DNA of 64,000 nucleotides. Origin: an uncultured delta proteobacterium. GTDB lineage: Bacteria > Desulfobacterota > Syntrophobacteria > BM002. The notes below the pieces were generated by a model. It did not search any database, was not told the origin of the DNA, and worked only from the letters and a program-made list of their open reading frames with translations. Below, in pieces: positions 8,114 to 53,806 of this stretch. Each line of letters starts with the position of its first letter. Position 1 is the first letter of the stretch. Location: contig CAVQGX010000030.1 of NCBI GenBank assembly GCA_963712115.1, positions 32,001-96,000 on the forward strand, written 5' to 3'. The position numbers and the translations under genes were made by a program.

Positions 8114-8184
8114 TCCCCCCTACCACCCCAAATCCACCGTCTAATTTAGTTATCAGGACTGAAATCAGCGGCTTATGGAGTATT

Positions 8185-8311
8185 CCTGATCACCAGCAAG
8201 GTATTAGATGCAAGGCGCCGAGGAGCGACGACTGAGGCGTATGGGGCAATACGCCGCAAGGAGGAGCGATCAAAGGCAACGCCGCAGATGATGCCTTGAT
8301 GGTGGATCAGG
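8185..8311. repeat. Palindromic intergenic (MITE/REP-like) element
   Basis: Imperfect terminal inverted repeat CCTGATCACCAGCAAGGTATT...ATGCCTTGATGGTGGATCAGG around GCAAGGCGCCGAGGAGCGACGACTGAGGCGTA..TACGCCGC. Confidence 0.7.
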
Positions 8312-8477
8312 GGCACAGAAGAAGGTTGCATTCCACCGAGTATTGGAGTACAAGGTAAGTCCAGATCAAGTCCATTTCTGCACTACCCCAAAACATTCCT
8401 TCCCATCCGTCAGGTCTACGCTCAACTGTTATGGACCGGCTTCCGGCCTAGGTCGAAGATTAAATGGAGGATGGTTG

Positions 8478-8777: not shown

Positions 8778-8821
8778 AAGATTAGTGACAGACTTAATCC
8801 TTCAGGAGAAATAGCCTCTCA

Positions 8822-8891
8822 CAGAGGTCAGAAGTCGGAGATCAGAGATCAGCCTCACGCTTGCCCACTGACCTTTGACTTCTGACCTCTG
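8822..8891. repeat. Heptamer palindrome family A copy, interrupted at its right end by the IS
   Basis: CAGAGGTCAGAAGTCGGAGATCAG...CTGACCTTTGACTTCTGACCTCTG; array resumes as TGACTTCTG at 10408. Confidence 0.85.
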
Positions 8892-8972
8892 GTTAAATGA
8901 AAAACGGACGACCGTGGTGTATAAAGCGAATTATCCGAACCAACCAAAACACACCACAAAGGAGGTCGTCCA

Positions 8973-10025
8973 ATGAAAAAGGTAGCATATCTGGCTATAG
9001 ATGTACATGCCGGTCACTGTGTTCTCGGCCACATGGATTTTGATGGAACTTTTATTGGAAACAGAAGATTTCCCACATCCGAGCGACACATTATCCAGGC
9101 CCTCAAAGCTGTTAAAGCAAAGGAGAAGTATCTGGCACTGGAAGAAAGTAACCTTGCCTATTGGGCTGCCCAGGTGGCCAGACCCTATGTAACCGAAGTC
9201 ATCTCCTCTGATCCCAGGGAGAACGCCTTGATCTACCGCAGTGCCAACAAGAGAGATAAGGTTGATACCCACAAGTTGTGCCGTCTTCTTAGACTGGGGG
9301 AGTTGAACCGGGTTTATCATGCTGAAAATGATGACCGCGCCATATTTAAGTCGGCGGTTCAACACTATATAGATCTTCGCGATCAGCAGGTGGTGTTGAA
9401 GAACAAGATTAAAGCTATGTACCGTCACTGGGGTGTTATTGAGGTAACAGGCCAAGCCGTCTATGGCACCAGCCGTGATGATTATCTGCAAAGGGTGAAG
9501 CATCTTCATATTCGCAATCAACTTCATCGTCTCTATTGTCTAATGGATGAAACCGAGTCCATGCAAAAAAGAGCTCTTAAGGCAATGAAGCAACTCGGGC
9601 GTAAATATCCTGAGATCAAAGAATTCGAAAAGATGCCTGGCATAGGGGAGATTCTTTCCCATATTTTCGATGCCTTCATTCAAACTCCCCACCGCTTTGC
9701 TCATAAGCGTAAACTCTGGCGCTATTGCCGCTTAGGGATCACCGATCGCTCCAGCGACGGTAAACCGCTGGGATTTAAACGGCTGGACAGATCCGGTGTC
9801 TCAGAACTCAAAGCCTTGAGCTATCGAGCATGGCTTGGTGCCATGGGAGGCGATAACGAGGTTAGAAAGTTTTACTCACGCTCCTTGCGGCAGACTCTAA
9901 GCCATGTCCATGCCAGACTCAATACCCAGCGAAAGATCATTGCCGTCATGTACGGCATGTGGAAAAGAGGAGATGCCTATAGGCCTGAACTGTTCCTGGA
10001 TTCGCCACAGATGAACGTTGTCTAA
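8973..10025 (+). CDS. IS110-family DEDD recombinase/transposase
   Basis: LAIDVH, LALEES, KRDKVDT (DEDD RuvC-like); MPGIGEI; C-terminal RSSDG serine loop; GGAGG RBS; intact ORF. Confidence 0.92.
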   Translation: MKKVAYLAIDVHAGHCVLGHMDFDGTFIGNRRFPTSERHIIQALKAVKAKEKYLALEESNLAYWAAQVARPYVTEVISSDPRENALIYRSANKRDKVDTHKLCRLLRLGELNRVYHAENDDRAIFKSAVQHYIDLRDQQVVLKNKIKAMYRHWGVIEVTGQAVYGTSRDDYLQRVKHLHIRNQLHRLYCLMDETESMQKRALKAMKQLGRKYPEIKEFEKMPGIGEILSHIFDAFIQTPHRFAHKRKLWRYCRLGITDRSSDGKPLGFKRLDRSGVSELKALSYRAWLGAMGGDNEVRKFYSRSLRQTLSHVHARLNTQRKIIAVMYGMWKRGDAYRPELFLDSPQMNVV

Positions 10026-10029
10026 AGGA

Positions 10030-10390
10030 GACAGCACCATTAACTGGACTGAAGTGCGCAGACCAGTCCGGCGGATCCGGGTTGCCGGGTGAGTCTCGAT
10101 CAATAGAAGTCTAGCCACCCCCGATGCTTCGGGGCGACAGGCTCGACCTCTGGATAGGCCCCCGGCCTTTATACCCAATGTGACCCTAGTCATTTTCCTC
10201 TCAGGAAAAACAGACTCATATATGTGACTGGAAAGAACACGGCCCGCACTGTCATGTTGATCCGATCACCCGACTGTGTATGCACACTTCATAAGTTAAG
10301 TGATGGTCTGCTCCCACATGGCCAACAAGGCTCACGGTCGTCCTGTGAAGTCAAAAACTCGATTTCACGGTAATGGATAAGTTTTTCTTT
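10030..10390 (+). ncRNA. Putative bridge RNA/seekRNA in IS right end; target-binding loop about 10084-10166
   Basis: Outer stem GCCGGG/CCCGGC and inner stem AGCC..CCCCGA-TGCT-TCGGGG..GGCT enclose AGAAGTC (10105-10111) and GACCTCTG (10145-10152), matching the two flanks of the insertion site. Transcript ends are not determinable. Confidence 0.75.
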
Positions 10391-10455
10391 ACTTCACTTT
10401 TCATATGTGACTTCTGTCTTCGGCCTGCTGGATAAATGTTCTTTCCCTGATTTCC

Positions 10456-10484
10456 TTGACAGTCAATCAGCAAAGGTTTATAAA
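10456..10484 (+). promoter_or_regulatory. Sigma70 promoter of tRNA-Ala
   Basis: TTGACA, 17 nt, TATAAA. Confidence 0.7.
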
Positions 10485-10498
10485 AAGGCCGGCAAAAA

Positions 10499-10574
10499 GG
10501 GGACGTAGCTCAGTTGGGAGAGCGCAGCGTTCGCAACGCTGAGGTCGTGGGTTCGAATCCCATCGTCTCCACCA
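10499..10574 (+). tRNA. tRNA-Ala (anticodon CGC)
   Basis: 76-nt cloverleaf; anticodon arm CAGCG-TTCGCAA-CGCTG; G3:U70; TTCGAAT T-loop; encoded CCA. Confidence 0.97.
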
Positions 10575-11014: not shown

Positions 11015-11082
11015 AGAGGTCAGAGATCAGATGTCGGAGGTCAGGGTTAAGCTGATCTCTGATCTCCGACTTCTGACCTCTG
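11015..11082. repeat. Heptamer palindrome family A copy
   Basis: AGAGGTCAGAGATCAGATGTCGGAGGTCAG..CTGATCTCTGATCTCCGACTTCTGACCTCTG. Confidence 0.85.
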
Positions 11083-23807: not shown

Positions 23808-24066
23808 AGCATGGAGCATAGGGCATAGAGCATAGGGCATAGAGCATAGAGTAAGGAGCCAGAAGTCGGAGGTCAGAGATCGGAGGACAGACGACAGACG
23901 ACGGATGCATTCAAGTTCAAGGTTCAAAGTTCCAAGTCCAGAGCTAAGAATGAACGGTTTCCACTGCTCACGGCTTACCGCTTACTTTAGGTTTTAACGG
24001 TTTAAACGATTTGAACGGCTTGAAAGAGTTGACTTTACGCTGTGCGTTTGGCGTTCTGCGCTCTGC
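23808..24066. repeat. Mosaic of short tandem repeats (AGCATAG heptamers, family A half-site, TTGAACGAT-type 9-mers)
   Basis: AGCATGG AGCATAG GGCATAG AGCATAG GGCATAG AGCATAG; AGAAGTCGGAGGTCAGAGATCGG; TTTAACGGTTTAAACGATTTGAACGG. Confidence 0.75.
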
Positions 24067-34596: not shown

Positions 34597-34658
34597 AGAG
34601 GTCAGAGATCAGATGTCGGAGGTCAGGGTTAAAGCTGATCTCTGACTTCTGACCTCTG
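34597..34658. repeat. Heptamer palindrome family A copy
   Basis: Near-identical to 11015-11082; includes GATCTCTGACTTCT (34637-34650). Confidence 0.85.
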
Positions 34659-36338: not shown

Positions 36339-36410
36339 GCAGAGGTCAAAGGTGAGAGGACAGAAAACAGCTGGCAAGAGGCAGAAGGCAGCCGGCAGCA
36401 GGTAGAACTT

Positions 36411-36479
36411 AGAGGTCAGAGATCAGATGTCTGAGGTCAGGTTTAAAGCTGATCTCTGATCTCCGACTTCTGATCTCTG
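36411..36479. repeat. Heptamer palindrome family A copy
   Basis: AGAGGTCAGAGATCAGATGTCTGAGGTCAG..CTGATCTCTGATCTCCGACTTCTGATCTCTG; 9-mer repeats follow. Confidence 0.85.
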
Positions 36480-49985: not shown

Positions 49986-50334
49986 CCAGGATGTTTCACG
50001 AATCGCTTACTGCGACCACGGATATGACCGCCCTTCCGTGCGTCCTCGGGCGTCGGCCCCTGCGACGTACCACTCAGGTACGCCTCGGCTTCGATCTTGG
50101 ATTTTGGATGTCGGATTTTTGACTACAATTGATGATATCGAGCTTAACAGTTCAGATTTCGGCATTTGTTCTCTGGTTCTCAAGAGCTTTTCAGTAAATT
50201 TTCAATCCGCGTTCCGCAATCCGCATTCCGCAATCGTCGACCCGGTGGCCCGCCCGCCTCGCCTTGCTCGCATGGCGGGCAGGCACGCCCATCTTCGTGG
50301 TCTCGTGACAGCAATTCATGAAACATCCTGGTTA
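49983..50334. mobile_element. MITE-like element copy 4 (long form with nested mini-palindrome)
   Basis: TAACCAGGATGTTTCA...TGAAACATCCTGGTTA; left end is the GT stop codon. Confidence 0.82.
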
Positions 50335-52571: not shown

Positions 52572-53786
52572 TTGGATCCCGAACCATCCGGTGTTCTTCA
52601 GGGCAGGACGCATGCTCGTATGCGCATTGCTTTTTATGCCCCTTTAAAACCGTTGGACCACCCCCGTCCCTCCGGGGACCTGGTAATAGGTACCGGTCTT
52701 TATCATTTTCTGCAAGGTCGTGGACATGGGTTAGGAAAAATCAGCCGGCTCCGCGCTCGCTGGATTTACTGGAAACCTTGGCTTTGGCCCCAGGTTGTTC
52801 GACATCGAAATCGGTCCTTTTACCATTGCCGCAAAATGGCAGCTGATCTTTGGCTGACCTATCACAGCTATTACAAAGCACCGGACCTACTTGGTCCACA
52901 CTGTTGCCGCCGTCTCGGCATACCCTATGTGATCTTTCAAGGCATCTACTCAACTAAGCGGCGAAAGCACTGGACTACTTGGGGTGGGTTTGTCTTGAAT
53001 CGGCAAGCACTTTTGGCTGCGCACCACGTTTTTACCAACAGGAAAGAAGATTTGGTCAACCTGGCAAGAATAGTGCCCGAAAAAAGTCTTACCTATGTGG
53101 CGCCTGGTATCTTTCCCGAACAGTTCTGTTTTGATTCGTCGTCTCGTAAGCAACTGCGGCGGCATATGGACATTTCTGAAGGGATAGTAGTGGTTACCGC
53201 TGCCATGTTCCGACCAGGGATCAAGACCGAGGGACTCTCTTGGGTAATTCGCTCATGTGGCGAGCTTTATAGAGAGAATGTTCCTTTGTATTTGCTCATA
53301 GCTGGCGATGGTAAAGAAGGCCCCCGTCTTCGCCAGATGGCCGATCACTGGCTCCCAGGGCGAGTTCGATTTCTTGGCAAGGTGGCACGAGAGGAGATGT
53401 ATCGTTTTTACAGCGCCGGAGATTTATTTGTCTTTCCCGGTATTCGTGAGTCCTTGGGTATGGTTTATTTAGAGGCTCAGTCCTGCGGTCTACCGGTAGT
53501 GGCCTTTGCTGACGGGGGTGTACCGGAGGTGGTTGAAGATGAAGTGAGCGGATTTCTGGTGCGGCCCTTCGATCTAAGGGGATTCAATCAAGCTATTGCT
53601 CGGCTAATGAATGATTCCGGCATGAGAAGACAAATGGGAAAGGCTGCGAGCAGTTACGTTCGGAGTCGGCACGATCTGAATAAAAATTATCGAATCGTGG
53701 AGGATATTTTGCTGGGGCTTGTTCAGGACCAGAGATCAGAGGTCGGAGGTCAGAGGTCAGAGGTCAGGGTTAAAGCTGATCTCTGA
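52572..53786 (+). CDS. Glycosyltransferase family 4
   Basis: RIAFYAPLKP.DHP.PSGD, YHSYYKAPD, ESLGMVYLEAQ..GLPV. Confidence 0.9.
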   Translation: MDPEPSGVLQGRTHARMRIAFYAPLKPLDHPRPSGDLVIGTGLYHFLQGRGHGLGKISRLRARWIYWKPWLWPQVVRHRNRSFYHCRKMAADLWLTYHSYYKAPDLLGPHCCRRLGIPYVIFQGIYSTKRRKHWTTWGGFVLNRQALLAAHHVFTNRKEDLVNLARIVPEKSLTYVAPGIFPEQFCFDSSSRKQLRRHMDISEGIVVVTAAMFRPGIKTEGLSWVIRSCGELYRENVPLYLLIAGDGKEGPRLRQMADHWLPGRVRFLGKVAREEMYRFYSAGDLFVFPGIRESLGMVYLEAQSCGLPVVAFADGGVPEVVEDEVSGFLVRPFDLRGFNQAIARLMNDSGMRRQMGKAASSYVRSRHDLNKNYRIVEDILLGLVQDQRSEVGGQRSEVRVKADL

Positions 53787-53806
53787 CATCCGACCTCTGA
53801 CCTCTG
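53730..53806. repeat. Heptamer palindrome family A copy overlapping the GT4 3' end
   Basis: CAGAGATCAGAGGTCGGAGGTCAGAGGTCAGAGGTCAG..CTGATCTCTGACATCCGACCTCTGACCTCTG. Confidence 0.85.

Follow-up and report, generated by a model that had tools for sequence, protein, structure and literature searches.

The 64,000-nt window of contig CAVQGX010000030.1 analysed here, the positions of which serve as coordinates throughout, comes from an uncultured delta proteobacterium and carries a 1518 bp insertion sequence at 8890-10407. This is, with a probability that we would put at about 85%, an intact and probably mobile element of the IS110 superfamily with an IS1111-type architecture, whose right end would encode an RNA with guides for a tandem heptamer target. 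The source genome (G000) comprises 4.9 Mb in 70 contigs and is 94% complete with 6% contamination. The original prediction, made from the letters of the window, described an intact RNA-guided recombinase aimed at an abundant intergenic repeat, and this description is supported, at the level of comparative sequence and modelled structure, by the other copies of the element, by guide covariation and guide order, and by the domains, catalytic residues and predicted fold of the recombinase.

Target site and copies in the genome

The features that define the insertion site are as follows.

8819-8889, no strand: intergenic inverted heptamer array pair, left arm ~8822-8852 and right arm 8868-8889 (Tandem Repeats Finder rows 8822-8852 and 8868-8891)
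8884-8889, + strand: left target half GACCTC, the same in 3/3 full copies and in a mini-element, and matched by the B guide described below
8890-10407, + strand: insertion sequence, 1518 bp, with near-identical copies in the genome and an empty site in a related genome (G010)
10408-10415, + strand: copy of the TG core plus the right target half ACTTCT, from the junction reading, the copies and the G010 empty site

At the left junction GACCTC (8884-8889) is followed by TGGTTAAATGAAAA, with the break at 8889/8890, and at the right junction TTTTCAT (10398-10404) and ATG (10405-10407), together TTTTCATATG, are followed by TGACTTCT (10408-10415), with the break at 10407/10408. Removal of 8890-10407 yields GACCTCTGACTTCT. 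On re-reading the sequence all the junctions, stems and guide coordinates that had been predicted proved exact, and the empty site that had been reconstructed by deleting the element exists: in G010, a genome of the same genus, the orthologous intergenic locus (L075) is uninterrupted and contains the exact 14-mer, which reads CTGACCTCTGACTTCT there, within the element-free stretch ...agccctCTGACCTCTGACTTCTctctcc.... The TG core is found once in this empty site and once at each junction of the filled site, so that counting one TG copy as part of the element is an arbitrary choice. The G010 site thus fixes the boundaries of the element, up to the shared TG, and establishes that there is no target duplication. 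Taken with the copies described below, insertion is site-specific, uses a short core and leaves no duplication, as in the IS110 superfamily.

The genome contains three full copies at 99.4-100% identity (100, 99.6 and 99.4%), one 594-bp mini-element and one fragment that spans element positions 428-1436. The flanks of the full copies read ctGACCTC/../TGACTTCTG, ctGACCTC/../TGACCTCTG and ttGACCTC/../TGACCTCTG, and those of the mini-element ctGACCTC/../TGACTCCTGACC; all four copies with intact ends are therefore inserted in GACCTC/TG/AC(C/T)(C/T)CT or, taken more widely, in (C/T)TGACCTC/.../TGAC(C/T)(C/T)CTG. It had been proposed that other copies should occupy the same site, which is what is seen in the 3/3 full copies and the mini-element. 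The full copies differ in only 11 alignment columns (8 substitutions and 3 one-base gaps), and each keeps an open reading frame. Two of the three private substitutions of copy 3 hit guide positions (10108 and 10224), both copy 3 and the mini-element have AGACGTC as the T guide described below, and the ribosome-binding site is AGTAGG in copies 2 and 3. The mini-element (C30:24581-25174 of G000, minus strand) lies ~6.8 kb upstream of the start of the window. Its first 167 nt resemble a left end, related to the present one but coming from a different relative; element positions 1092-1518, with the guide-RNA region and right end, make up the rest, and a recombinase gene is missing. It has the appearance of a non-autonomous derivative with its own guide.

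The element sits in the 3' arm of the inverted heptamer array pair. The uninterrupted orthologue in G010 folds to a hairpin whose 3' arm contains the target (-28.7 kcal/mol, with a z-score of only -1.45), and look-alikes of ~80 nt of the array pair are scattered across the genus (similarity search, query positions 708-790). The two near-cognate sites with 13/14 matches that had been predicted, at 23861-23874 (minus) and 34637-34650, are both present, and three more were located at 8870, 53752 (minus) and 53792, so that the window holds 5 sites with at most one mismatch to the 14-mer against 0.01 expected from shuffles. Across the genome the exact 14-mer is present unoccupied 26 times, sites with one mismatch account for 97 more, and GACCTCTGACCTCT occurs 29 times. 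The original prediction had called the target "the" dispersed heptamer repeat of the genome; a dispersed and abundant intergenic heptamer is indeed what is used, but CTGACCT is one of many such families, ranking fourth in a crude count.

The genome of G000 is rich in tandem heptamer arrays of many units, often as inverted pairs between genes; within the window they include 11015-11082, 23808-23902, 36355-36479, 50203-50235 and 53730-53806, and the commonest units genome-wide are AATCCGC, AAATCCG, AGAGCAT and ACCTCTG. Similar inverted tandem heptamers (MTYCTGA) are mentioned for Geobacter metallireducens in PMC2700814.

The putative guide RNA and its covariation with the target

The right non-coding end contains the features of the putative guide RNA.

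10026-10407, + strand: right non-coding end, 382 nt (left: 83 nt), from the open reading frame (ORF) map; minimum free energy (MFE) z-score -4.58
10051-10291, + strand: guide RNA, predicted extent (RNAalifold on 36 sequences)
10084-10166, + strand: target-binding domain, with outer stem GCCGGG 10084-10089/CCCGGC 10161-10166 (structure alignment)
10105-10111, + strand: T guide AGAAGTC, the reverse complement of GACTTCT, which would pair with the top strand G+ACTTCT right of the core
10145-10152, + strand: B guide GACCTCTG, which has the sequence of the left flank plus the TG core and would pair with the bottom strand
10188-10216, + strand: second-domain hairpin, with five pairs (helices 7 and 8) showing compensatory changes
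10220-10229, + strand: donor-side guide ATATGTG (10220-10226), the last 5 element bases plus the TG core, then ACT, the first 3 target bases after the core

It is proposed that this end encodes a structured RNA of ~240 nt, of the bridge RNA or seekRNA kind, which would be transcribed, processed and bound by the recombinase. One internal loop would present both target guides: AGAAGTC would pair with the top strand directly right of the TG core, and GACCTCTG with the bottom strand over the core and to the left of it, and together they would select GACCTC-TG-ACTTCT, that is, two adjacent units of the abundant intergenic tandem heptamer array. Because the target is a tandem array, both guides would read neighbouring units of the same array. 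A second domain of the RNA, carrying right-end sequence and the core, would recognise the donor. The element would, on the analogy of IS621 and ISEc11, be excised as a circle; the RNA-protein complex would then pair the circle junction with the target, and strand exchange at TG would leave the target unduplicated. Given their order and spacing, the chance of finding both the 7-mer and the 8-mer flank match in the 382-nt end is of the order of ~1e-5 by our own arithmetic.

Relatives of the element allow the guides to be compared with their flanks. The comparison set comprises 59 relatives (63-99% amino acid identity), of which three close ones come from genomes and 56 are metagenome loci. A scan of species-representative genomes gave the three close ones, at 88-91%, and two others at 33-37%, and the same three were found again in 3/17 same-genus genomes; a metagenome scan gave the 56 loci, at 63-99%, plus three at ~33%. 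The distant relatives (L009, L010, L070-L072; 32-38% identity) have no recognisable ends or RNA in common with the element. In an alignment of 54 RNA segments (4 from the source genome and 50 others) the scaffold GGCGGATCCGGGTTGCCGGG...TAGC-hairpin-GCTC...TGGATAGGCCCCCGGCC is near-invariant, and free variation is concentrated at 10105-10111 (7 bases) and 10145-10150 (the six bases before CTG), which are the guide segments.

The reverse complement of each T segment was compared with its right flank and each B segment with its left flank plus TG, using 43 right flanks of at least 12 nt that represent 37 unique events for T, and 35 unique events for B. With three registers allowed, the mean best match of the T guide is 5.46/7 against 3.80 for permuted flanks (0/10,000 permutations reaching it), and with the register fixed it is 3.95 against 2.84 (0/10,000); for the B guide it is 6.23/8 against 5.12 (0/10,000). 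When a single event is kept for each distinct guide, the 26 T guides score 5.38 against 3.76 and the 23 B guides 6.17 against 4.95 (each 0/10,000). The covariation of guide and target that had been put forward as a check is thus found: variable segments within a structured and otherwise conserved RNA track the flanks of the element. Both strands of the loop match and co-vary with the two target halves, as is expected in the IS110 superfamily, with imperfect matches and with kinship only partly controlled.

Individual cases illustrate this. In a close pair with the same B guide, the complement of the L058 guide is GACACCA and its flank TGACACC, and that of L059-L061 is GAAACCA with the flank TGAAACC; in L032 the guide complement GCGTCCG accompanies the flank TGCGTCCA, and in L055 GCGCTCT accompanies TGCGCTCT. 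From the sequences these appear to be independent changes of guide and flank together. A single fixed register for the T guide was tried and dropped, as it fits heptamer targets and fails for octamer targets: targets with 7-nt units are matched from the second core base (positions 2-8) and those with 8-nt units (TGCGCCTC, TGTGCCTC and similar) at positions 3-9, which is offered as a description and not as an established rule.

The donor-side segment shows a comparable relationship with the right end of the element. Amongst 33 unique events the right end ATGTG is accompanied by the guide ATGTG in 5/5 and ATACG by ATACG in 4/4, and the right end ATATG by the guide ATATG in 16/24, the remaining 8 being off by one base. 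Furthermore, the base after this guide equals the first target base past the core in 24/33 events (permutation mean 11.9; 0/10,000), and in no event is it the G that a circle junction has after the core. Judged by these sequences, the segment 10220-10229 behaves like a donor guide extended into the target.

The structure of the RNA is conserved outside the guides. The structure alignment comprises 36 sequences, three with an insertion at a hairpin tip and the minus-strand copy 3 having been excluded. Going inward from its outer stem, the target domain has a second stem (10093-10096/10156-10159) and then an inner stem (10113-10115/10141-10143), which encloses an apical hairpin (10119-10134); the second-domain hairpin at 10188-10216 is followed by CATATATGTGACT. 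Outside the guides, 98% of stem cells are paired, with 7 pairs showing compensatory change, and the covariation score is 0.113 against 0.064 when shuffled (0/500 reach it) and at most 0.042 when partners are slid. With more flank included, RNAalifold also predicts a closing long-range helix, ~10051-10077 with 10262-10291, for which there is little compensatory support. No Rfam family matches the right end at E <= 1. In L037:1178-1506, L038:1368-1699 and L050:1260-1567 the tip of the second hairpin carries an extra 140-165 nt, which suggests that this tip tolerates cargo.

Targeting of short tandem repeats extends beyond the source genome. Amongst the clade's unique insertion sites for which each side offers at least 21 nt, 25/34 lie in at least two adjacent units of 7 or 8 nt with at most one mismatch, and nine have no such period; the same periodicity is found in 305/5000 random 42-mers of this genome (6%). 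All targets of the clade have a C-TG pattern in common. The source genome also contains eleven more IS110-family recombinase genes, of several other subfamilies (on contigs C41, C48, C42, C36, C18, C54, C9, C29, C34, C3 and C13; L084-L094), and two of these (L084 and L085) have subterminal repeats, TATGAAAAAGC, that resemble those of the element studied here. None of the other IS110-family elements of this genome was found in heptamer arrays in the 4 pairs examined, so that array targeting would be a habit of the present lineage. In the main text of the literature searched, no report was found of an IS110-family element that targets short tandem heptamer arrays; tables in the supplements to PMC11208160 and PMC11187229 may bear on this.

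The recombinase, the element's ends and its neighbours

The remaining features of the element are as follows.

8893-8898, + strand: -10-like hexamer TTAAAT (TAATAT in many relatives), proposed from the sequence and the ends of relatives
8897-8903, + strand: left subterminal inverted repeat ATGAAAA, kept in the left ends of relatives
8906-8916, + strand: GGACGACCGTG, arm of an 11-bp perfect inverted repeat with its partner at 10333-10343
8960-8965, + strand: ribosome-binding site AGGAGG (sequence reading)
8973-10025, + strand: recombinase (transposase) gene, 350 amino acids (Pfam, catalytic residues, AlphaFold2, Foldseek)
10333-10343, + strand: CACGGTCGTCC, partner arm of the 11-bp inverted repeat, which pairs with 8906-8916
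10388-10393, + strand: putative -35-like hexamer TTTACT (many relatives have TTGACT), 14 nt from the right end
10398-10404, + strand: right subterminal inverted repeat TTTTCAT, conserved in relatives

The gene at 8973-10025 is the only ORF of the element, with 83 nt before it and 382 nt after it. Its product has both domains expected of the IS110 superfamily, an N-terminal DEDD domain (PF01548, 1.4e-9, 38.3 bits against a cut-off of 29) and a C-terminal PF02371 domain (6e-8, 33.4 bits against a cut-off of 21.3). The catalytic D-E-D-D and C-terminal serine are retained: in alignments of 14 and 41 sequences, which take in divergent members of the IS110 family (14-38% identity), D95, D98 and S261 do not vary and D10 and E57 are present in at least 90%. 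The AlphaFold2 model (predicted local distance difference test score, pLDDT, 86.1; predicted template modelling score, pTM, 0.71) has IS621 as its best match in the Protein Data Bank (PDB) by Foldseek (8wt9_A, E 8.7e-13, template modelling (TM) scores 0.63/0.68, over the full length of the model), and the top 10 matches are all IS621 or ISCro4 chains from bridge-RNA complexes (E 8.7e-13 to 8.5e-11), so that the recombinase is predicted to have the bridge-recombinase fold. A sequence search finds similarity to IS621 in the C-terminal domain only (E 7e-5). Identity to the annotated IS110-family transposases compared is at most 24%, the best annotated plasmid-borne relatives being at ~24% or less, and the GL-P----S(t)G motif region reads RLGITDRSSDG, with the serine aligned and G and P replaced. 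The recombinase family is a large one, with 1423 proteins at E <= 1e-3 (amongst 2532 candidates); identity is 71% or more throughout the best 120, and those that bear a name are called only "transposase".

The subterminal inverted repeats are 7 bp long here and 9 bp in relatives with TAATATGAAAA, and the partner segment at 10333-10343 of the 11-bp repeat is conserved in 40 aligned non-coding ends. If the element is excised as a circle, the junction would join TTTACT, 14 nt of right end, TGG and then TTAAAT, giving a promoter-like pair of -35-like and -10-like hexamers with a 17-nt spacer. No sigma-70-like promoter was found within 8800-10500 (0 found, 2.0 expected).

The element is flanked by other features of note. 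At 8127-8314 there is a dispersed repeat of ~190 nt, of which the genome contains more than 20 copies (88-98% identity; similarity search, query positions 28-215) and the genomes of the same genus contain many; Rfam gives no match for it. A tRNA-Ala (CGC) lies at 10499-10574, 92 nt downstream of the element; a permissive Rfam scan had labelled it a transfer-messenger RNA below the gathering score, which was the sole Rfam match near the right end and was rejected as a mislabelled tRNA-Ala.

Alternative readings, relation to known systems and significance

A number of observations weigh against the reading of an RNA-guided element. Within the genome the T guide mismatches its own flank by 1 in copies 2 and 3 and by 2 in the mini-element, and the AGAAGTC guide is present in only 2 copies against 26 perfect empty sites, so that activity may be low or past. 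Amongst the relatives the T guide needs two registers, and fixing the register, with each distinct guide counted once, weakens the signal (3.27 against 2.40; 1/10,000); the own flank is the best or tied-best match for only 16/26 T guides and 13/23 B guides, and the permutations leave in the kinship amongst elements and amongst hosts. Chimeric joins at repeats can occur in metagenome contigs, and L027 and L028 share 200 nt of right flank with left flanks that differ, which reflects either an assembly chimera across the insertion sequence or rearrangement amongst copies. A search for a donor guide to the left end found none, so that the donor-loop match is supported on its right-end side only; the candidate GTGACCC (10180-10186) was dropped, being invariant, predicted to be paired and not tracking left-end variants. 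The right end is covered by contigs from four RNA-library runs, one of which spans 9985-10305 with 2 differences, and three such contigs from three studies begin or stop near 10064-10068 and 10305-10310, which is a weak hint, as contigs cannot show strand, ends or transcription. No joint from 10407 to 8890, as a circle would give, was seen in these four runs, an absence that carries no weight in contigs. Finally the recombinase, with 82 bits over a full-length match (residues 6-333), does not reach the cut-off of 140 of the NCBIfam IS110 family (NF033542), which nine of the eleven other IS110-family genes of the genome exceed.

It would seem very improbable that the recombinase, or the hairpin shape of the array, picks the site without RNA and that the flank-like words are captured remnants of the host repeat or an ordinary stem. 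The T and B guides are nearly complementary to each other and the MFE structure pairs them in the free RNA, they can pair in 65% of cells across relatives against 55% when shuffled, the target sits in one arm of a hairpin, and the common C-TG pattern is one that a protein could read. This partial complementarity arises because the target is a tandem repeat, and the free RNA may close its target loop as a consequence; those parts of the guide words that are not mutually complementary nevertheless still track the flanks, the words vary while the surrounding 80-nt scaffold stays constant, a captured repeat would not be split around a conserved hairpin in 54/54 aligned sequences, and the solved complexes of the family use RNA guides. 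The idea that the 3' RNA is a separate selfish or regulatory small RNA (sRNA) module, riding on the element as Ssr9 does on ISPpu9 and dispensable for transposition, is also quite unlikely. It draws on the downstream sRNA of ISPpu9, which is described as dispensable and as moving as its own module (PMC12288879) and which cautions against assuming a function here, and on the make-up of the 594-bp derivative, in which the RNA region and right end follow a piece that resembles a left end; yet the RNA of the present element matches both target halves and the donor end and co-varies with them, and a mini-element in the same target is what would be expected of a non-autonomous element mobilised in trans with its own guide.

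Least probable, in our estimation, is that the copies are relics of a system that was once RNA-guided and is now immobile in this genome. There are only three full copies against the 26 perfect and 97 one-mismatch empty sites, the ribosome-binding site AGTAGG of copies 2 and 3 is weakened, one copy is a fragment and no promoter-like site was found inside the element. Against this, the full copies are almost identical with open frames, the catalytic residues are intact, the presence of a relative varies within the genus and the G010 site is empty. An intact, RNA-guided and probably mobile element remains the reading that we prefer.

Much of this architecture is familiar. IS1111 elements are described as having a non-coding region downstream of the gene, subterminal repeats, proteins of 330-350 amino acids and a seekRNA of 82-96 nt in which the match to the top strand comes before that to the bottom strand (Siddiquee et al. 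2024, PMC11187229), and bridge RNAs with target and donor loops are predicted in the right end of 93% of IS1111 elements, the subterminal inverted repeats of which are defined as 7-17 bp (Durrant et al. 2024, PMC11208160). The label "IS1111-type" in the original prediction holds for the architecture of the present element, in its subterminal inverted repeats, its 3' non-coding region (longer than the left one and containing the guide RNA), the order of its guides (10105-10111 before 10145-10152) and the length of its protein. As far as the IS1111 seekRNA elements ISEc11, ISKpn4 and ISPa11 are described in those texts, it resembles them further in the absence of target duplication and in a domain of ~83 nt whose top-strand and bottom-strand matches overlap in the target. 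It differs from them in the low identity of its transposase and its altered motif region, in a target that is a short tandem repeat where theirs is attC, a transposon end or a repetitive extragenic palindromic (REP) sequence, and in a second domain with an evident match to the donor end.

With IS621 and ISCro4, as described in the accessible text (PDB 8wt6-8wt9, 9t56; PMC11208160), the element has in common the predicted fold, the DEDD residues and serine, a dinucleotide core and one guide per strand presented in loops. Similarity to these at the sequence level is confined to the C-terminal domain, the core here is TG, and the RNA lies in the right end where theirs lies in the left. A further likeness is that the base past the core in the donor-side guide follows the target, which resembles the "handshake" bases.

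IS110-family elements are reported to insert in REP sequences in work by Tobes and Pareja in 2006. REP-targeting elements of the family are already known (PMC12288879), and the element described here is like ISPpu9, ISPpu10 and other REP-inserting IS110-family elements, as these are presented there, in using a dispersed intergenic hairpin repeat as a multi-copy landing site and, like ISPpu9/ISPpu10, in having RNA-only modules alongside full copies. Its repeat is unlike theirs in being a tandem array of 7-8-nt units, in which insertion leaves more target units beside the element. The mechanism, whether by bridge RNA or seekRNA, and the targeting of host repeats are already known, and what is new is the divergent lineage, at no more than 24% identity, and the class of target.

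A more speculative possibility, which we consider rather unlikely, is that the element belongs to an undescribed deep-branching IS1111-like clade of sediment Desulfobacterota that is specialised on 7-8-nt tandem arrays and retunes both guides to the repeat "dialect" of each host, with the register shifting by one base between 7-mer and 8-mer arrays. As the target units occur head-to-tail and inverted genome-wide, the same complex could also recombine array against array. Were this so, deletions, inversions and changes in array length would result, and the element would drive the dynamics of repeats and genome beyond the role of a passenger in a safe harbour.

With 26 different T guides and 23 different B guides carried by a single conserved scaffold, each beside its natural site, the clade amounts to a natural reprogramming series. 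It provides material for working out the rules of specificity and mismatch that IS1111-type guide RNAs follow; these RNAs have received much less study than IS621. The recombinase belongs to an overlooked family that is abundant, falls below the curated IS110 cut-off and is publicly named only as "transposase". The habit of IS110-family elements of inserting in host repeats is furthermore widened from REP hairpins to short tandem arrays, where insertion does not use up the site.

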